Positions 6,619 through 35,600 of a stretch of DNA of 55,284 bases are shown here, piece after piece; within the stretch, counting starts at the first letter, position 1, and each line of letters opens with the position of its first letter. The translations under genes were made by a program, and so were the position numbers. This stretch comes from a virus (taxonomy: Duplodnaviria > Caudoviricetes). The stretch lies in IMG/VR virus record IMGVR_UViG_3300037440_000124, positions 1 through 55,284 of that record; one strand, written 5' to 3'. The notes below the pieces were generated by a model. That model saw only the letters and a list, made by a program, of their open reading frames with translations. It was not told where the DNA came from and searched no databases.

Positions 6619-7011
6619 TCAGTAATAGGCGACAAAGAATTGCAATGACACGCGATATAGCTTCGTGTCTGTCTCGAAGAATTCGAGCTTCCGTTCCAAT
6701 CTGATCTGGTCCACCTGATCACGAGGACTCAAGGTGCCGAAAGCTCCGGTATGACCGGCGAGTGAAGATTCCACGGCGTCAGCTATCTCGTGTGCACCCC
6801 CATGAACCAGAGACCAGCAATCGACCTCGTACAGGGCTGTTTTCAGCGAACTCACTGCATCGAATAGTTGCTGGCGCTCATCCGACTGCAGTCTGTAGCT
6901 GATAGACGGAAACGTGGCGTTTTGCGGAACCCAGTGCGGGTATATCGCGCCCACGAGAGCGTCCACCCCTGCATCTGCTGCGAGGTGCGAGTAAAACGAC
7001 TCGATGAACAT
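6619..7011 (-). CDS. Tail terminator / completion protein (DUF3168-like)
   Basis: IYPHWVPQNATFPSISY..YEVDCWS..A..IADAV; synteny. Confidence 0.8.
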   Translation of the reverse strand: MFIESFYSHLAADAGVDALVGAIYPHWVPQNATFPSISYRLQSDERQQLFDAVSSLKTALYEVDCWSLVHGGAHEIADAVESSLAGHTGAFGTLSPRDQVDQIRLERKLEFFETDTKLYRVSLQFFVAYY

Positions 7012-7469
7012 CAGGACTTGGCGGCTTTATCGATCAGGCGTTTCAACTGCGTGCGAAACCTTGCATCCACGTCAGGAATAGAAGCAGCAAAGGCCGGCTC
7101 AAACCACGGACGCGGCGGATTGCGTGACGTACCGAACTCGTAGAAGTTAATCGCATAGAACGCTTCCTTGCGCGGTGCCAACATCACAATGACCGTCCGC
7201 TTATCCCGACTCAACAGGGATTTGCGCGAGATGTTGCGGCTCGCATAACCAGGCGTTCTGAGATTCCCCTTGTACGTCTTGACCGGGTACGGGTCTTTCA
7301 ATCTTCCGTCATACGTATACGGAGGATTGCCAACAGGTGCCGCTGCTTGTGTCGCTTTGAGTGCCGGCAGCATCGACGTCATGGCGGCTGATCGCAGCGC
7401 CTTACCTCCAGCAGCAGCGGTCATCTTGCGCAGCTTCTGATCAAGTTCTTTGTAACCGATGGTCGGCAT
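7011..7469 (-). CDS. HK97 gp10-like tail completion protein
   Basis: FYEFGTSRNPPRPWFEPAF motif; start chosen at the ATG overlapping the upstream stop. Confidence 0.85.
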   Translation of the reverse strand: MPTIGYKELDQKLRKMTAAAGGKALRSAAMTSMLPALKATQAAAPVGNPPYTYDGRLKDPYPVKTYKGNLRTPGYASRNISRKSLLSRDKRTVIVMLAPRKEAFYAINFYEFGTSRNPPRPWFEPAFAASIPDVDARFRTQLKRLIDKAAKS

Positions 7470-9709: not shown

Positions 9710-10297
9710 TCAGCGAAGGTTCCTGTAGATCGGCGCAATCGGCATCTGAAATGGTAAATCCTTCACTCGTTTCGCGCGGAAAAACCACATGCGCCTGGGA
9801 GCAATCCCGGACATATACAGGCGTTCGCAGTCCAGGCCGTTCAATTCTGCAAGCTCGCGATAGAACCGATCGTCGGGATAATGCAATCCGTGCCAAGTCC
9901 AATCACCTGGGGCCGGCGTAGTACTGATCAGCACACTGCCGACGTGCATTGCCTCCAGAATGTTCCTCCAGCACGGCTCCTGCGTGTCGACGTGCTCGCT
10001 GGTGCCGATATTCGACACCATGTCGAACGTTCCAAAACCCAGCGGCTTACGCAGATCCTTGACCAGAGAGCCGTGCTGACCGTTCCAGTCAACGCTGACG
10101 TGCCTGAATCCATTCTTCTCGAAGAAGCTTTTGTACGTATACGGTGCGTTGATCTTACAGCCAAGCTCCAGCATCGACTCGCCCTGCAATGGCTGGTACA
10201 GCTCCCACTCAGCCAGTCGATTGTGGAAAGGCCCTAAATCAGATTGACCAGATTGCAAGTTTGCAGCCATCTGCTCCGCCATCGTTGACGCTCTCAA
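9710..10297 (-). CDS. Class I SAM-dependent methyltransferase
   Basis: MLELGC..SVD..DL..FDMV..GTSEHV motifs; start uncertain. Confidence 0.72.
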   Translation of the reverse strand: MRASTMAEQMAANLQSGQSDLGPFHNRLAEWELYQPLQGESMLELGCKINAPYTYKSFFEKNGFRHVSVDWNGQHGSLVKDLRKPLGFGTFDMVSNIGTSEHVDTQEPCWRNILEAMHVGSVLISTTPAPGDWTWHGLHYPDDRFYRELAELNGLDCERLYMSGIAPRRMWFFRAKRVKDLPFQMPIAPIYRNLR

Positions 10298-10760
10298 TGT
10301 AATCCCAGAGGTACGCGCGGAGATCCAGACGGGTGAATTCCTTGTTGCCGTCGTACCAGTCGAACTGTGTTGCTATCAGGTACCTCGACGATTTCCTGAA
10401 TAGCGCAAGCGCCGCCTCAATGCGCGGCGCATCAAGATGATTCAGTACGTGCCTGCACAACAGACCATCTGCTAGCGGCATGGCCTCGTTGGTAATATCG
10501 AGTTTGGTCACTGTTTCTGCTCTAGGAACCAGGTCGAACGGTCGATATTCGACATCCCACTTGATCTGTCGAATCCAGTTCATATCGCCAGCACCGGCGT
10601 CGTTAAGCGTCATAATTCCGTATCGCTTCACAACAGATGGAAGCCATCGGCGAATATTATCTGTGCTTCTCAGCGTTGAACCGTTACCGCAGATTGTTTC
10701 AGGTTTCCCTCCCCTCCAGCCTTTAGCCATGCGCTTAAGCATGGCTTCGTCAGACAACAT
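10239..10760 (-). CDS. Class I SAM-dependent methyltransferase-like protein
   Basis: CGNGST..LNDAGAGDMNW..DIT..LLCRHVLNHL motifs. Confidence 0.68.
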   Translation of the reverse strand: MLSDEAMLKRMAKGWRGGKPETICGNGSTLRSTDNIRRWLPSVVKRYGIMTLNDAGAGDMNWIRQIKWDVEYRPFDLVPRAETVTKLDITNEAMPLADGLLCRHVLNHLDAPRIEAALALFRKSSRYLIATQFDWYDGNKEFTRLDLRAYLWDYIESVNDGGADGCKLAIWSI

Positions 10761-11373
10761 CGGATATGTCCATCGACGGAATCACACCTTCAAGCGCGGA
10801 ATGCGGTGTCACACAAATCAATTCGACCAATCCCTGCTCATGTATCGACCGGTACAGTTCCACCAGTCCGATGTGTACGCCATGCCGTACTTGCACGCTG
10901 GGCCAATGTGCCATTTGTGGCGGATATTCGCCGAAAAAATGACGCGGCGTTGATCCAATTTGTCTAGACCGACCGTCGTAGTCAGATGCGAATTTCAGGT
11001 CGTAGCCCAACAGGAGAATGCTTTTTGCACCTGCTCGATATGCCATCGACACCAGCGAAAAACCTGATCCAAATCCGTGGTGAATCACGTCCGGGTCAGT
11101 CGACAGCCCCTTGGCATTCCGCTCAGCAATCCAGTTAATCCCGAATTCATCAGCCGCCTGTCTGTTAGTCGTCCACTTCTCTGCCGGCAAATCCTTAACT
11201 TGCGTCCAATAATGTGACCACCAGGAATAATTACATCCATATAACAGCGCTGCATCGGGTACCAGTTGAAAAGCGTTATTACACGCGAACAACAAAAAGC
11301 CGCGACTACGCGCGGCATCGATTTGTGCAACGGTCAGTGACGGACCAGTCGCAACACAACAGATAGTGATCAT
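10750..11373 (-). CDS. MptE/MAF-like, GT29-like fold protein
   Basis: VATGPSL..CNNA..SGFSLVSMAY..GAKSILLLGYD..HFFG motifs; paralog of 13485..14168. Confidence 0.6.
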   Translation of the reverse strand: MITICCVATGPSLTVAQIDAARSRGFLLFACNNAFQLVPDAALLYGCNYSWWSHYWTQVKDLPAEKWTTNRQAADEFGINWIAERNAKGLSTDPDVIHHGFGSGFSLVSMAYRAGAKSILLLGYDLKFASDYDGRSRQIGSTPRHFFGEYPPQMAHWPSVQVRHGVHIGLVELYRSIHEQGLVELICVTPHSALEGVIPSMDISDVV

Positions 11374-11555
11374 TCGTCCGGCGGCTTGCCGAGCTTGTTT
11401 ACCATGTAAAACAATTTGATAGCGCCTCTGGGAATCGAGCGTTCACCCGATTCCCAGCGCGCCCACGTTCTCGGAGTAACCTCCACCTGCCTGGCAGCAT
11501 CAGCAAGTGACAGGTTAAGCTCATAACGTAACTTTTTGAGTTCTTCGCCTTTCAT
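11370..11555 (-). CDS. Small XRE-type HTH regulator, similar to the Aca2 N-terminal HTH
   Basis: MKGEELKKLRYELNLSLADAARQVEVTPRTWARWESGERSIP; last gene of the Cas7-like cassette. Confidence 0.8.
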   Translation of the reverse strand: MKGEELKKLRYELNLSLADAARQVEVTPRTWARWESGERSIPRGAIKLFYMVNKLGKPPDE

Positions 11556-11965
11556 ACCTGCCAGACACTACCTAACCCCAACGACCCCGACTGACCCCGC
11601 CTGAACTGACCATGACACATCTTGTCTGCCGCGCCTTAGAGCACCCGACCTAACCTCACAGCGCCTTGCCAGACCGCGCCAAACCTAACCAAATCTGCCG
11701 CAAACTTACCGGACCTAACCGCTCCTAACCATTCCATACACCACCAAGCCGTGCCGGACCGCATCTGCCCCACCAGCACACATCAGACCTCGCCCGTCCA
11801 AAGATCACCCCACCAGATCAAACCATGTCTGCCGCACCGAACCCCTACGGAACGTACCCAACATTACCATCCATACCTCGACACGTCTGCCAAGTCTTAC
11901 CGCACCTAACCGTGCCTTTCCCAGCCACGCCTTGCCGGGCCTGACCATGCCATCCCATGTCTGCC
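11556..11965 (-). ncRNA. Non-coding guide-like array: six units of alternating GGY/NN (5-nt period) bounded by GGCAGAY motifs
   Basis: Boundary motifs begin (minus strand) at 11965, 11891, 11833, 11769, 11699, 11630 and 11562; by hand count 44 of 70 spacer triplets are exactly GGY; 11-14 variable dinucleotides per unit. Confidence 0.85.
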
Positions 11966-11968
11966 TTG

Positions 11969-12436
11969 TCATGCAGCCTTGCGTTTCTTTCGCGAAGCTG
12001 AATTCCGAACTTGACGTATCGCCAGAATAACCGGCTTTGCCATTTGCAAATGAGCGTATCTAGACTCAAGGCGACTGATAAGATCAAGAAACCGACCTTC
12101 GGCTGCCGTAACCTCGTCCTCGGTTGCCTTGAATAACGGCACGTACCTGCCGCGATCTGCCGATTGGATAAAGGCGTTGACCTCGATCACTTCGTTTTGC
12201 GCGTCTACAATCTCGACGTGCAATGATTGAACCATGACACGCGCCTGCACCATTCGAAACTGGTGCGCGGCCTCCGTGTCACTCCACTCGAAGATCGCGT
12301 GAGCCGGTGATCGAATCTTTCGCGCCTCTTTGATAATCCGCTCTGCGGACATATCCGGCAGTGACTCAAGCCATTCGCCGATAGCCTGAGCGTCGCCATT
12401 GAGGTGTCTGCGCCACTTATAGATTCGATTTTTCAA
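11969..12436 (-). CDS. Accessory protein of the Cas7-like cassette (conserved phage hypothetical)
   Basis: AERIIKEAR..SPAHAIFEWSDTEAAHQFR..QAR motif; TTG start with AGGGAGG RBS overlapping the upstream stop. Confidence 0.7.
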   Translation of the reverse strand: MKNRIYKWRRHLNGDAQAIGEWLESLPDMSAERIIKEARKIRSPAHAIFEWSDTEAAHQFRMVQARVMVQSLHVEIVDAQNEVIEVNAFIQSADRGRYVPLFKATEDEVTAAEGRFLDLISRLESRYAHLQMAKPVILAIRQVRNSASRKKRKAA

Positions 12437-13074
12437 GTGGCCTTCCTCCCTTTCTTCGGATTCTTGACGCACCACATCCCAAAGTCACCACCGAATGACT
12501 TGCGACCGAACGGACGAAGTTCGTCAACACCGATCTGTGTTCCGGCTCTCGCCAACAAATTCGCAACATCATTGGCGGATACAAGGTCAGCATCGAATTC
12601 AACTGCGATTTCGCAAGCCCAGGAATCGTATCTGGGACGATTCCTCAGATCCGTTACGCCAGACTCAAGCCTTACCGGACGGGTATCATGCACAGACTTA
12701 CCATGAATCCTTACCAGTGGCGTGCCATCCGTTACATCGAAGCCATCAGGCTTGATGAAGAATGCACCCTTGGCAACTGTCATCGGCAAGCCATCGACAT
12801 TCGAACAAGCACGAATCATCGCCGCTCGAATTGACAAGGCCGGAATACCTTCCCACTTCGCCGTGCTGATGTATTTCGCACCCAGATATTCTGCTTTGTA
12901 ATCCTTCGGTGCGCGCTTCTTCTTCGTTTTGCTCTCAGCCTGCTGCGTTTCCTCCATTTGCTTTCTGGATTTCTCAGAAAACTTATGAAGCATCAGCGGG
13001 CTAACGCCTTCCAGCCTGAGCTTGACTACCTGAAAGTTAGGCGGCTGGATTTCAATACGGGTTTTCTTAATCAT
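12433..13074 (-). CDS. Stand-alone Cas7/RAMP-like RNA-binding protein
   Basis: N-terminal beta strand LRLEGVSPLMLH; GIPALSIRAAM (cf. RAMP IPgSSlKGalR); C-terminal Gly-rich loop IGVDELRP..GGDFG; ATG at 13074 with GGAG RBS. Confidence 0.75.
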   Translation of the reverse strand: MIKKTRIEIQPPNFQVVKLRLEGVSPLMLHKFSEKSRKQMEETQQAESKTKKKRAPKDYKAEYLGAKYISTAKWEGIPALSIRAAMIRACSNVDGLPMTVAKGAFFIKPDGFDVTDGTPLVRIHGKSVHDTRPVRLESGVTDLRNRPRYDSWACEIAVEFDADLVSANDVANLLARAGTQIGVDELRPFGRKSFGGDFGMWCVKNPKKGRKAT

Positions 13075-13121
13075 CGGTCGATCTCCATACGCCACGACCC
13101 TACGCCATGGCTTCAACCCTA

Positions 13122-13150
13122 ACTATGACCAATGGTCAGAGCATAGTCAA
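13122..13150 (-). promoter_or_regulatory. Sigma70-like promoter with overlapping palindromic operator
   Basis: TTGACT-17 nt-CATAGT; inverted repeat TGACCA-A-TGGTCA at 13126-13138 and ACTATG..CATAGT at 13122-13147. Confidence 0.65.
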
Positions 13151-13156
13151 TATCTT

Positions 13157-13360
13157 TCACACAAATTCAGGCGGCTTCGGATACGGCTCGCGCAACTGAT
13201 AGGCTCGTCGCACCTTCAGATGCCAGTCACGCACCGCGGCGTCAATCTCCTCACCTTTCTTGGCGCACGGCTCGCACAGACCGCCACTAAAATGCGCCTC
13301 CTGAGACTCGATGGCTTTTTTCTGAGTCCCGCAACGATCGCAAACGTAAATAATAGCCAT
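13157..13360 (-). CDS. Small hypothetical zinc-binding protein
   Basis: CDRC and CEPC pairs; AGAGGA RBS. Confidence 0.55.
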   Translation of the reverse strand: MAIIYVCDRCGTQKKAIESQEAHFSGGLCEPCAKKGEEIDAAVRDWHLKVRRAYQLREPYPKPPEFV

Positions 13361-13372
13361 TGATAATCCTCT

Positions 13373-13564
13373 TTATCGCTTTCGTGCGGTCTTTTTCTTT
13401 ACCCCTTTCAGGGACAGAACCGGGAGACCCTTGTCCGCGTATCCCTCTCTGAGTGCCTTGCGGGCCATGCTTTCGGAAATCTGCTCAGGCACCTTGTACC
13501 TGCCCTTCGACAGAAAACCGCCCTGTATTGGCCAGTCTTGTGTCAGTTTTATGGTGTAACTCAT
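13373..13564 (-). CDS. Small basic hypothetical protein
   Basis: GAGGAG RBS before the ATG at 13564; overlaps the upstream gene. Confidence 0.45.
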   Translation of the reverse strand: MSYTIKLTQDWPIQGGFLSKGRYKVPEQISESMARKALREGYADKGLPVLSLKGVKKKTARKR

Positions 13565-14168
13565 GTTGCTCCTCGAGTGCCTGTTCAAAGGTCATCTTTG
13601 GAAAGCACTGCAACGCGCTGACAGGTGTGGCATTCACGATCCTGATATGCGCCGGCAGCTTTTTCGCCGCCACGTCAAAGTGCTTTGCAAATTCAGTGTA
13701 ACGAGTACCTGATTCTAATTCCCTCGGATACTCACCGAAGAAATGCGATTTCCCGCCGGTCTTCTGCATGTCGAAGCCGATCAGGATGATGTGCTCACAG
13801 CCGAACAGGATCGCCAGGTTGATCGCCTGAAATCCCGAGTTGCTGCCGTAGTTGATAACCGATGGATCAAGTGAAAACGTGGAACCATGAGCGCCTTGCA
13901 CACAATGCACTTTCCACTTCTCGTGTGCCTCTGTCTTGTCGTTCGATGAATATCTTCGACCTTCGTGGGTGCTCCACTTCTCACCATCGAACGCTCCATC
14001 GTGATACTTCCACCATCTCGGCTCACAGCCATACAGAACGTCCGCCCATGGGATCAAGCGATAGGCATCCTGTACAACAATGATCGGATGATGACGAACC
14101 GGTACCAAAGAAGGCCCCGGCGCGGCCACGATACATGACCGCCACCGGGGAGAAACAACCTCAAGCAC
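13485..14168 (-). CDS. MptE/MAF-like, GT29-like fold protein (paralog of 10750..11373)
   Basis: VAAPGPSL..NSGFQAINLAILFGCEHIILIGFD..HFFG..NATP.SAL. Confidence 0.6.
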   Translation of the reverse strand: MLEVVSPRWRSCIVAAPGPSLVPVRHHPIIVVQDAYRLIPWADVLYGCEPRWWKYHDGAFDGEKWSTHEGRRYSSNDKTEAHEKWKVHCVQGAHGSTFSLDPSVINYGSNSGFQAINLAILFGCEHIILIGFDMQKTGGKSHFFGEYPRELESGTRYTEFAKHFDVAAKKLPAHIRIVNATPVSALQCFPKMTFEQALEEQHELHHKTDTRLANTGRFSVEGQVQGA

Positions 14169-14171
14169 CGA

Positions 14172-15443
14172 TCAAGTATCGGCGAGTTTCAGTAGCTTCA
14201 AACTGTCATTATTAAGAACAGTTCCGCCGTAGCGCCGACGCACATAGAAGCGAACGTAACCAGGATTGGTCACGGACTCGCTCTGTATCATCAGTTCCGT
14301 ACGGCTGGTCAGCAGGTAAGCCCGTGCAAAATCACCGAAGGCAATAGCAAAGCCATCGCCCGTGGTGGGATTGCTCAGGTTCTCCCAGGTGAATACCTCG
14401 TAGCCCAACAGACGGTCAGGCTGGCCGACCTGCAGACTCGGTTGCCAGAGATACTGGCCGTTCGTGTCTTTCAGCTTCCGCATGAAGCCCTGCGTCACCG
14501 TGTTCATTGCGAACTTGGCGTTGCTTCGATAACGCGGGTTCAACGCATACACCAGGTCGATGACGTTATCCGCATTGATTGCCTGCGGAGAACTGGTGAC
14601 CGCGATGTACTCGTAAGCATCAGCATCACGAAGCGGAGATGCATGGTCATCGGTTGATACAGGCGCAGTATCGGTCATACCAGTCGGCTTGTCGGAACCG
14701 TCGCCGCTGTAGATCGCCAACGCCAGAGCATTCGACATGCCCTCCGAGATGTCGTTGACCAGCCAGTCCGATACATTGAACTGGATATCCTGGATCGACC
14801 ATTCGGAAACCTGCGGGTACGCATAAAGCTCGCCCCAGGTCGGCTTACGGCTCCTCAGGTTCGGCGTTCCGGTTGCAGACCTGGTACCGGCTTCCGCCAC
14901 CCACCCCGACGTTCCGCCATGAATCGACACCAGCTCCTGATAGTCGCTCGTGCCAACGCGAATGTTCTTCACGTTGTTCACGACCTGCGACAACTTCAGA
15001 AGCAGAGCATCGACCGAGGCACCGATTTCCTTCGGCAGGGCAAAACCACCGCCAGGGTTGCTTCCGATGGTCACGTCTTTCTGTGACAGATCGCGCAACT
15101 TGCCATTGATGGTGCTGTCCTGGAACCCGACACGCAGTCCCTTGAAGAACATGTCGTTGTATTCCTTACGAGCGATCTCCTCCGGTGTTCCGCGCGGACG
15201 GTCGGCAAGCGCTTCCAGCATCTCGATGCGCGCCTGTTTCTTCGCCTCTTCGGCCTCCATGGCCTTAAGCTTCGCCTGGGACGAGTCCAGATCCTTGCTG
15301 ATCTTCGTCAGCTTCTGCTCGAGTTCCTGAGTAAGGGTCTGATTGCCCTTCTCCATGGCCTCAAGGCGTTCGTCGTTGGTCTTCTGAAACTCGGTAACCG
15401 TCTCACCGAGCTTCTGCATCTCCTCTACAATGGGATTTCCCAT
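14172..15443 (-). CDS. Major capsid protein, HK97 family
   Basis: Coiled-coil delta domain; GGFALP, GDGSDKPTG, LKDTNGQYLWQP, LLGYEV, FGDF motifs. Confidence 0.96.
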   Translation of the reverse strand: MGNPIVEEMQKLGETVTEFQKTNDERLEAMEKGNQTLTQELEQKLTKISKDLDSSQAKLKAMEAEEAKKQARIEMLEALADRPRGTPEEIARKEYNDMFFKGLRVGFQDSTINGKLRDLSQKDVTIGSNPGGGFALPKEIGASVDALLLKLSQVVNNVKNIRVGTSDYQELVSIHGGTSGWVAEAGTRSATGTPNLRSRKPTWGELYAYPQVSEWSIQDIQFNVSDWLVNDISEGMSNALALAIYSGDGSDKPTGMTDTAPVSTDDHASPLRDADAYEYIAVTSSPQAINADNVIDLVYALNPRYRSNAKFAMNTVTQGFMRKLKDTNGQYLWQPSLQVGQPDRLLGYEVFTWENLSNPTTGDGFAIAFGDFARAYLLTSRTELMIQSESVTNPGYVRFYVRRRYGGTVLNNDSLKLLKLADT

Positions 15444-34385: not shown

Positions 34386-35168
34386 CGTGGATGTCCGTGC
34401 CATGTCTCGCACACATGGCCAGGATGAAGTGGGCCACCGCAGGATGTGCAAGTCACGAAAGCATTTGCTCCGGTCGCGTTGCACCCAACCGCTACGGCTT
34501 CGTCAGTGTATTTTTCCGTCTCAAACTCGAACCCGCCCATGCGGTGCGTAGCAAGCATCGCGGCGTTGTCGCTAAACCATTTCTCGTATTTCTCGATCTC
34601 ATCCGCAGCCAGCTTGTCCTCGAGCTCCCCATGTCTGGCGTACTGAGCCAGCAACCACTTCACTAAATCGCTCACCGTCATTTCCCCTTTTCTGGCATAC
34701 CACCGGGCCTTTGGCCTGATCGGAGCCCTACAGCACTCCGTGTTCACAGCCTCGGCTTCGCCTTTGTCCTGACCGGATAACAGCCTTATGGCCACCAGGA
34801 TCAGCGGTCGGCCCGTGGGACCTCCCCTGGATTTGTACTGCTACTGCAATCTTTCCCGCCCGGCGCGAAGTTGCACGCGCTCGGCACACGGTGTAGGATT
34901 TGCCCTGAAACTCTCGATTTGCAATCCCGATTCAGGGCCCCCACCCGTGGGGGCTTTGTTTTTTGTATCTCGAAAAGTCACGCCCCCGGCCCGTACATAA
35001 CTTCCTCGAGATCCACGACCGTCTCCCGCAGCACCGCCCGAATGGCCGCGACCGATACGTCGTAGTCCCCGGCAATGTCCGCAATATCCTCACCGGCTTT
35101 GGCACGGTCGCGAATGGCATCCTTGATGCGATGATTCGCGTCGGCATGGCCACGTAAGAAGTCTTGCG

Positions 35169-35495
35169 TCATACGGAAACGTCTTGCCAAACTAGAACCG
35201 GCTTACCAAGTTTCATCTCGTCGGTTTTGTGATGTGCCTTGATGTGCAGATGGCGAGACTCGAATTTCCTGGCGATCTGAAGGAATTCACGAGCGAACTG
35301 CGGCGCGTCGAATTTCTCGCTGAGCTGGATGGTGTGATCAGAATTCATGATCAAGTCGGTACGTGCATTGACACGTTCCAACCATTCTTGCTCTGCTACG
35401 AATTTTCCTTTCCTATCAATCTCGCGATCGATCTGCCTCTTTGCCATTTCAAAGGCACGATGCCTGGTCATTCCGAAAACTGCGTAGGTACTCAT
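35169..35495 (-). CDS. Hypothetical protein
   Basis: 108-aa ORF with GGAGG RBS. Confidence 0.55.
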   Translation of the reverse strand: MSTYAVFGMTRHRAFEMAKRQIDREIDRKGKFVAEQEWLERVNARTDLIMNSDHTIQLSEKFDAPQFAREFLQIARKFESRHLHIKAHHKTDEMKLGKPVLVWQDVSV

Positions 35496-35600
35496 TGATT
35501 CCTCCGGTTCACAACAACGTCCCGAAAAAAACGACCGCCGCCAATGCCGCCAGAATCAGAATGGCATTCATGATGGTCTTGGCGCGGGGAGAGACGCGGC

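Follow-up and report, generated by a model that had tools for sequence, protein, structure and literature searches.

What does a phage genome encode in a G-rich stretch between two open reading frames (ORFs), where GG recurs every five bases? The stretch in question lies on the minus strand (11558-11965) of IMG/VR record IMGVR_UViG_3300037440_000124 (Duplodnaviria; Caudoviricetes), a complete viral record with terminal repeats, whose entire 55,284 nt we analyzed and refer to as the window. From the stop of ORF 11969-12475 to the start of ORF 11370-11555 there are 413 nt, of which 43% are G on the minus strand, and the plus-strand GC skew over the array is −0.46 to −0.50. An earlier inspection of the letters alone (hereafter the sequence-only reading) had described units delimited by GGCAGAY in which a constant GGY alternates with a variable NN. 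We conclude that the region is very probably a tail-less "staggered" array of six guide RNAs (vrRNAs) of a phage-encoded Viral Interference Programmable Repeat (VIPR) system, a reading built on the observed sequence grammar, the Cas7-like fold of a linked protein, the homology of that protein to the Vipr protein of SUSP1, same-strand linkage of arrays and vipr genes, and exact natural matches of guides U2 and U4.

VIPR systems were described in 2026 (bioRxiv 10.64898/2026.04.26.720920, 10.64898/2026.04.26.720927, 10.64898/2026.10.15.759431). A system consists of Vipr, which is a minimal RAMP protein, together with an accessory vap gene and vrRNAs in which YNNGG is repeated 9-16 times (bioRxiv 10.64898/2026.04.26.720920). 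Seven types (I-VII) are distinguished, and the accessory genes are numbered vap1 to vap6 (VIPR preprints). Vipr is a RAMP protein with an RRM core, a glycine-rich loop, and a thumb; the GGY of the vrRNA is constant and the NN hypervariable, and one protomer per repeat buries the GGY (VIPR preprints). The NN dinucleotides pair with double-stranded DNA (dsDNA), skipping one target base per repeat that is usually the wobble base of a codon, the arrays occupy intergenic DNA flanking vipr on the same strand, and the systems silence competing phages, prophages, and satellites (VIPR preprints). A supplementary legend mentions "staggered arrays ... 1 nt overlapping" (bioRxiv 10.64898/2026.04.26.720920); as far as this legend text goes, the 5n−1, tail-less array of the window fits that description.

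Grammar of the array

Parsing of the minus strand between 11965 and 11558 yields six abutting, GGCAG-bounded units (U1 to U6) of GGYNN pentamers. GGCAGA starts at 11965, 11891, 11833, 11769, 11699, and 11630, and the last boundary is a GGCAGG at 11562; these positions reproduce exactly the previously proposed unit boundaries and lengths of 74, 58, 64, 70, 69, and 68 nt. The proposed delimiter GGCAGAY stands as far as GGCAG, which is conserved, but the base that follows is not fixed, as the GGCAGG at 11562 illustrates; it is otherwise A in the window and T or A in a syntenic relative (L121, below). When the terminal G of GGCAG is assigned to both neighbors, unit lengths become 75, 59, 65, 71, 70, and 69 nt (Table 1), three of them divisible by five and three one base away from a multiple of five. 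Counted in this way, the pentamer register shifts by one base at every boundary. The 5n−1 spacing of GGCAG recurs in other vipr loci, where 51 of 83 spacings (18 loci) are 4 mod 5. Each unit holds 11-14 guide dinucleotides, and our independent parse returned the same NN lists for all six units (pentamer 9 of U6 was settled separately) and the same single 1-nt indel in each of U2, U4, and U6.

The autocorrelation of G over the array is 0.35, 0.37, 0.32, and 0.34 at lags 5, 10, 15, and 20, and it falls below zero at lags 2-3 and 7-8. At lag 5, the check suggested by the sequence-only reading, the signal is strong (0.347 versus a mean of −0.001, sd 0.048, maximum 0.15 in 2000 mononucleotide shuffles of the region; z = 7.3), and when all 400-nt segments of the 55-kb sequence are ranked by it, the top six all fall within the array. 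A pattern of ten GGs at period 5 occurs three times in the window, always inside the array, and not once in 100 dinucleotide-preserving shuffles. The second-highest lag-5 base autocorrelation of the window is found at 35001-35500 (0.21-0.24); this segment is ordinary coding sequence without GG pentamers.

Exact GGY is present in 45 of the 70 internal pentamers; the total given earlier was right and the count of 44 was not. Entropy per pentamer position is 0.42, 1.04, and 1.34 bits for GGY and 1.98 and 1.97 bits for NN (70 pentamers). Positions 1-3 are constrained, with nearly random bases at positions 4-5. The idea that a constant GGY scaffold and variable NN information are interleaved is thereby supported, and it coincides with the published definition of the vrRNA (bioRxiv 10.64898/2026.04.26.720920).

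The array also differs, as had been claimed, from a CRISPR repeat-spacer layout: Tandem Repeats Finder detects no more than a 10-nt repeat in three copies, and none of the ten neighboring genes scanned against PHROG and Pfam is a cas gene. Overlapping frames of 47-80 amino acids (aa) across the array were considered as coding sequence and rejected as by-products of a G-rich, period-5 sequence; the 1-base indels and near-random positions 4-5 argue against coding. An Rfam scan of 10500-13000 returned only a sub-threshold msiK match, and neither megablast nor blastn of 10700-13200 against the phage collection returned a match. U3 carries one copy of GCTGGTGG, the E. coli Chi octamer (11780-11790, minus strand), which is probably incidental in such G/T-rich sequence.

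A Cas7-like protein linked to period-5 arrays

The array lies 480 nt downstream of a gene for a Cas7-like protein, on the same strand and beyond a small vap-like gene. The sequence-only reading had not noticed this Cas7-like neighbor. The AlphaFold2 (AF2) model of the protein is confident (predicted local distance difference test, pLDDT, 91; predicted template-modeling score, pTM, 0.84). Its top Foldseek matches in the PDB are all Csm3/Cas7 chains (E 9e-6, probability 1.00), VIA-align superimposes it on Csm3 with Z 11.2 and a root-mean-square deviation of 3.4-3.8 over about 152 residues, and all 50 entries listed by VIA-align are CRISPR effector complexes or their Csm3/Cas7-type subunits. A Pfam scan of the protein gave no match. 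The C-terminal motif AG...G.G(D/E).RP...G.F is conserved in the family, with G178, G182, and G199 invariant.

A family profile built from this protein and its relatives matches agp039 of Escherichia phage SUSP1, which carries a type II VIPR system and serves as the model in the preprint, at 151 bits (E 2e-48). We take agp039 to be the SUSP1 Vipr because it matches 9 of the 10 residue names cited from the structure preprint (bioRxiv 10.64898/2026.04.26.720927). According to that preprint, the SUSP1 residues that read G1, G2, and Y3 are H17, R138, D177, W178, and R179 (bioRxiv 10.64898/2026.04.26.720927); H17, R138, and R179 are conserved in the window Vipr as H30, R146, and R187. SUSP1 K33 aligns to A46, but inside a variable segment. 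A tblastn search of the phage collection with the window Vipr also found homologues annotated "hypothetical protein" in 27 Mycobacterium phage records (Donkeykong, Brocalys, Quico, and others), two Gordonia phages, and Cyanophage Cy-LDV1 (38.6% identity). Judged by these homologues, cultured actinobacterial and cyanobacterial phages probably carry VIPR.

A blind scan of IMG/VR viral contigs for ten GGs at period 5 returned at least 118 loci, many of which carry long GGYNN arrays with various punctuation. Among the matches listed, 74 of 118 encode a PHROG-4652 (Vipr) homologue (47 by a single phmmer search, 74 after one converged profile iteration), and all 74 vipr-bearing loci (74/74) have at least one array on the same strand as vipr, mostly ~10-40 nt upstream or downstream of it or one small gene away. 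Because of this close same-strand linkage in the 74 loci among the matches listed, we regard the array and the Cas7-like protein as a conserved module. One locus (L007) has an extra array on the opposite strand, the only such case among the matches listed. The other 44 of the 118 listed are without vipr, some being poly-G or simple repeats (L010, L012, L039) and others short contigs. With vipr present in 74 of the 118 matches listed, period-5 GG arrays are a cheap, specific marker for VIPR loci in viral metagenomes.

One syntenic relative of the window was recovered (L121), with the same gene order and aa identities of 82% for Vipr, 62% for the vap-like protein, and 66% for a small helix-turn-helix (HTH) protein encoded next to the array. 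Its array has nine units versus six in the window. As the sequence-only reading had expected of related phages, GG, Y, and GGCAG are conserved while NN turns over unit by unit, here in a single, fairly distant relative. The two arrays have no guide in common (best NN overlap 11/14 over a partial span, others 44-71%), and the L121 guides match the window only at background level (best 16/22, 14/17, and 15/18).

The vap-like protein has a conserved motif, SP(A/L)H..FEW.D..AA..FR..QAR, and an AF2 model with a pLDDT of 88. Its homologues adjoin vipr in 20 of the pattern-found loci and in L121; seven close metagenomic homologues were found and no close relatives in IMG/VR viral contigs, and a metagenome scan with the Vap alignment returned one locus, L121. 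Taken from the sequence, the promoter-like site upstream of vipr, vipr itself, the vap-like gene, and the array form one predicted minus-strand module.

Punctuation varies among the other loci. In L043 (about 6900-7250, minus strand), GGYNN arrays are separated by elements that end in what looks like a canonical T-arm plus acceptor 3′ end (GGTTCGACTCC...CCCA). By their sequence, these elements may be tRNA-like minihelices acting as processing punctuation; ARAGORN finds 0 tRNAs in L043, and the available preprint text contains no mention of tRNA-like punctuation (bioRxiv 10.64898/2026.04.26.720920). In three further vipr loci (L004, L016, L030), arrays are separated by 30-50-nt G+C-rich hairpins instead of GGCAG. 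Rfam at the gathering threshold returned nothing on the arrays of all four loci, and in the three hairpin-bearing ones no family, hammerhead included, rose above threshold.

Guide targets and the weighing of alternatives

Targets were called under the published 1-nt-skip rule (NNxNNx), in which the guide NN pair and every third target base is skipped; the collection scans used exact patterns only. The pattern of U2 is matched exactly (22/22) in 13 viral contigs by 11 distinct sequences, whose differences are confined to the skip positions. Each of these sites encodes VEIINCTPGSA in frame, and 13 of 13 lie in homologues of the MptE-like genes of the window. For U4, an 11-NN pattern found three viral contigs, all of which match at 26/26 when the two flanking NN outside the pattern are included, and the full 13-NN pattern found two bacterial contigs of metagenome-assembled genomes (MAGs), titled Stappiaceae and Neomegalonema. 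All five U4 sites (5 distinct sequences) encode APTFGMIYAYPKA in an HK97-type major capsid gene; the bacterial matches are prophage capsid genes in two alphaproteobacterial MAG contigs. Every match of U2, U4, and U6 is in frame, with NN on codon positions 1-2 and the skipped base at the wobble position.

By calculation, a pattern with 26 fixed bases would turn up by chance ~3e-4 times in 596 billion bases (both strands). The near-full patterns of U1 (12-NN), U3 (11-NN), U5, and U6 (12-NN) had 0 exact matches in IMG/VR viral contigs, and that of U5 had 0 in genome contigs also; since these four guides gave no matches, near-full patterns do not match freely. Skips of 0, 2, and 3, tried on local data, gave background or a trivial self match only.

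The remaining matches are partial. Decoded as codons, U5 has its best self match at LVYALNPRYRSNA in the capsid gene of the window (score 42 versus a null maximum of 34 in 30 shuffled-order controls), and at the homologous capsid site of another locus (L139) it matches 19/26; U5 probably targets the capsid gene. The best self match of U6, decoded in the same way, is DVIHHGFGSGFSL (score 57 versus a null maximum of 44). In the MptE-like gene, U6 matches 22/26 in L121 (21/25 before the indel was placed in GGY), 21/26 in L124, and 20/26 in the window. By sequence, then, U4 and probably U5 match the predicted major capsid gene, and U2 and U6 the MptE-like gene, of other phages and prophages. One of the MAGs in which U4 matches a capsid gene exactly also contains a partial U2 site (19/22, in frame, encoding VEVIECAPGSA; G001:C7:2196287-2196318, L140). 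The two sites are on separate contigs, not in one prophage.

The published cut-off for self-targeting is an 80% NN match (bioRxiv 10.64898/2026.04.26.720920). The best self matches of U1 to U6 are 17/28, 16/22, 16/24, 18/26, 16/26, and 20/26, none of which reaches 80%, and the homologous sites in the window match at 59-77% of NN (Table 1). Guides that match genes of other phages while the phage's own copies are mismatched point to a role in competition: the array likely silences related competing phages in the same cell and spares self.

The steps by which it would do so are taken from the VIPR preprints and carried over to this locus. The array would be transcribed with or after vipr and vap and yield, by processing presumably at GGCAG, six RNAs of about 59-75 nt. 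In the assembled ribonucleoprotein, one Vipr protomer per pentamer would bury G1, G2, and Y3 and present N4N5, the 11-14 NN dinucleotides would pair with dsDNA reading NNxNNx..., and the resulting filament would keep the bound gene from being transcribed. To these published steps we add a proposal of our own, in which the guides, lacking a structured tail, would be separated by the one-base register shift at each GGCAG boundary. A more general idea, which we put forward tentatively and consider somewhat unlikely, is that the register shift is the punctuation of tail-less VIPR arrays, with the second possibility that the guides of this lineage are directed chiefly against orthologues of conserved genes that the phage itself carries (capsid, MptE-like). 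If the former were true, a Vipr filament growing along one unit would no longer be in phase with the GG of the next, and discrete guide complexes could form or be cut without hairpin, ribozyme, or tail; if the latter, the array would be a kin-exclusion device forced to co-evolve with self-mismatches.

Several observations weigh against a functional VIPR array. In the array itself, 25 of 70 pentamers are not GGY and three units (U2, U4, U6) carry a 1-nt indel; a conserved structured 3′ tail, as in characterized type II systems, was not found in the window array, and the array RNA folds no better than shuffled sequence (z −1.22; 13 of 100 shuffles fold equally well). Among the guides, U1 and U3 gave no target in the exact-pattern scans of IMG/VR viral contigs, U5 and U6 have partial matches only, and the 0 matches of a reversed/shuffled pattern come from a single control. 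Two of the five base-contacting residues of Vipr differ from SUSP1: D177 is E185, with E also in 25 of 76 family members, and W178, which stacks on G2, is L186, the sole L of 76 members, 57 of which have an aromatic residue. The vap-like protein has no profile similarity to agp038 (vap1) of SUSP1, no meaningful Pfam match (21 members scanned), and no convincing fold match (Foldseek best E 0.56; best Z 6.9 in a wide structural search of the PDB, on its C-terminal helical hairpin only).

The same features are what a decaying or inactive VIPR remnant would leave, that is, a locus of VIPR descent that lost its function through degenerate GGY (25/70), indels in three units, and loss of the G2-stacking aromatic residue (the leucine unique among 76), with four of the six guides lacking an exact target in exact-pattern scans. 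We consider this improbable: U2 and U4, which have exact natural targets, are themselves indel-bearing, the indels sit in GGY and leave the NN register intact, and the genome record is complete, with terminal repeats.

Far less probable is an RNA decoy or regulatory leader, a G-rich transcript bound by a ring- or filament-forming protein that controls the downstream HTH gene or titrates a host protein and guides nothing to DNA. The trp leader RNA, with 11 GAG/UAG triplets and 2-3-nt spacers, is bound in this way by the protein ring TRAP, and its triplet-plus-spacer binding sites resemble the period-5 layout of the array; in addition, the last GGCAGG abuts the HTH start codon in a junction that is identical in L121. 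Such a leader leaves unexplained both the near-maximal entropy of NN and the exact in-frame matches of NN strings in the capsid and MptE-like genes that other phages carry, and the HTH gene stands beside the array in only two loci besides the window, versus 74 of 118 for the Cas7-like gene among the matches listed. Scarcely credible, and the least probable of the three, is a DNA-level element (an origin, pac site, or recombination hotspot in which a strand-biased G-rich tract acts through two-tetrad G-quadruplexes or R-loops), for although the plus-strand GC skew of −0.46 to −0.50, the one GCTGGTGG in U3, and a GG every 5 nt that could form G-quadruplexes would suit it, such an element needs no position-3 pyrimidine, no GGCAG at 5n−1 spacing, and no linked RAMP gene, and would not carry NN strings that match genes of other phages codon by codon.

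Genome context and comparison with known systems

On the minus strand, the VIPR module follows a block of terminase-sized and portal-sized ORFs (assigned by size only), a prohead protease, the major capsid gene, an MptE-like gene (phrog_4603), and a 67-aa ORF. After these come the PHROG 4652 protein (213-227 aa), the PHROG 15946 protein (155-168 aa), the array, the 61-aa HTH protein, a second MptE-like gene, and methyltransferase-like genes (Table 1).

Table 1. Positions of array units, genes, and guide-related sites in the window.
Feature	Position	Strand	Description
vrRNA unit U1	11887-11961	minus	75 nt, 14 NN: AT AT AT CA CC AA GT TG AA AC TA GC AA TT
vrRNA unit U2	11829-11887	minus	59 nt, one GGY base missing, 11 NN: GT GA AT AT AA TG AC CC GG TC GC
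vrRNA unit U3	11765-11829	minus	65 nt, 12 NN: AT TT CT GG GA TT CG GA CT GT CT GG
vrRNA unit U4	11695-11765	minus	71 nt, one extra GGY base, 13 NN: GC CC AC TT GG AT AT TA GC TA CC AA GC
vrRNA unit U5	11626-11695	minus	70 nt, 13 NN: TT TA TT GC CT AA GC GA TA CG GC AA GC
vrRNA unit U6	11558-11626	minus	69 nt, one GGY base missing, 13 NN: AA GT AT CA CA GG CA GG TC GG TA AG CT
vap-like accessory gene	11972-12436	minus	155 aa (ORF start listed at 12475); PHROG phrog_15946, function unknown
vipr	12436-13074	minus	213-aa Cas7-like RAMP; open frame extends to 13116; PHROG phrog_4652, function unknown
Promoter-like site	13122-13150	minus	TTGACT, 17 nt, CATAGT; just upstream of vipr; 9/12 consensus matches; candidate operon promoter only
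Small HTH gene (Aca2/HTH_31-like)	11370-11555	minus	Pfam HTH_31 E 6.5e-9; start codon directly after last GGCAGG
Major capsid gene	14172-15443	minus	Pfam Phage_capsid E 1.4e-55
Own capsid site homologous to U4 target	14809-14846	minus	18/26 NN = 69%; mismatched, presumably spared
Own MptE-like site homologous to U6 target	11054-11091	minus	20/26 = 77%; best self match of any guide
Own U2-homologous sites	10796-10827 and 13615-13646		15/22 and 13/22

A scan with the promoter consensus found 2 sites in the region versus 1.6 expected, and the evidence for a promoter is therefore weak; L121 has a comparable TTGACA ... CATAGT upstream of its vipr. The junction between array and HTH gene, GGCAGGTATGAAAGGCGAAGAACTCAAAAA, is identical over 30 nt in L121 (window 11555-11562, L121 1840-1870) and more conserved than the flanking coding DNA of this 70%-identical relative. 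The HTH gene was considered as a component of the system and set aside, as L121 and L038 are the only other loci with a homologue next to the array (in L075 it lies elsewhere); in the window it adjoins the array, and its membership in VIPR is putative.

The two paralogous MptE-like genes (phrog_4603, labeled "alpha-2,3-sialyltransferase"; 10750-11373 and 13485-14168, minus strand) bracket the VIPR module after the capsid gene, with the methyltransferase-like genes (9710-10760) also among the bracketing genes. In other phages, U2 and U6 match homologues of these MptE-like genes, and the bracketing genes may serve in the modification of virion or DNA. A second run (X2) supplied contigs that span vipr, vap, and the HTH gene with some 87-96% identity and leave 11472-11957 uncovered. 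One X2 contig, of low depth, terminates at 11958, where a loose end of 13 nt spells different pentamers; it was not used as evidence.

VIPR matters as an RNA-guided DNA-recognition code outside CRISPR. Because it was described in 2026, the window locus is no discovery of principle. What it adds is an independent rediscovery of the GGY/NN grammar from sequence alone, an environmental phage whose complete genome carries a tail-less staggered array (a less-studied architecture), two guides (U2 and U4) whose exact natural targets lie in structural and modification-type genes that belong to other phages and prophages, and a natural Vipr variant without the G2-stacking aromatic residue.

The closest described system is the type II VIPR of SUSP1. 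On its minus strand, the SUSP1 record holds one GGYNN array, agp039 (195 aa), agp038 (146 aa), and then three arrays, in agreement with the preprint. The two loci are alike in having vipr, a small accessory gene, and a downstream array on one strand, a homologous Vipr (agp039 scores 151 bits with the family profile), guides of 11-14 GGY/NN pentamers, natural matches that follow the 1-nt skip with the skipped base at the wobble position, and targets in other mobile elements with no self-targets of ≥80%. They differ in that SUSP1 vrRNAs are separated by hairpins and have a structured pseudoknot tail, whereas the units of the window abut, end in GGCAG, and shift by one base; in that SUSP1 has an array upstream of vipr and the window has none; in the accessory protein of the window, unrelated by profile to agp038; and in Vipr, where Leu and Glu replace W178 and D177. 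The targets differ as well, being capsid and MptE-like genes of related phages for the window and, according to the preprints, the recombinase of a satellite for SUSP1. Because no invariable structured 3′ tail follows the repeat tracts, we do not file the window locus under type II (the SUSP1/P. fulva clade).

With Class 1 CRISPR-Cas the locus shares the RAMP fold (Z 11.2 to Csm3) and the placement of one protomer per fixed step of guide RNA with a thumb that interrupts pairing periodically (VIPR preprints). The step differs, at 5 nt with 2 pairing bases for VIPR versus 6 nt with 5 pairing bases for Class 1. The window locus is phage-borne, has neither a contiguous spacer nor direct repeats, and shows no cas1/cas2 or other cas gene among its annotated neighbors. 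A functional analogy exists with the TRAP-trp leader, in which a constant triplet plus a short variable spacer is likewise read by a protein oligomer at a period of ~5 nt. The TRAP ring is of an unrelated fold, and its spacers carry no information, whereas in the window the spacers are the information.

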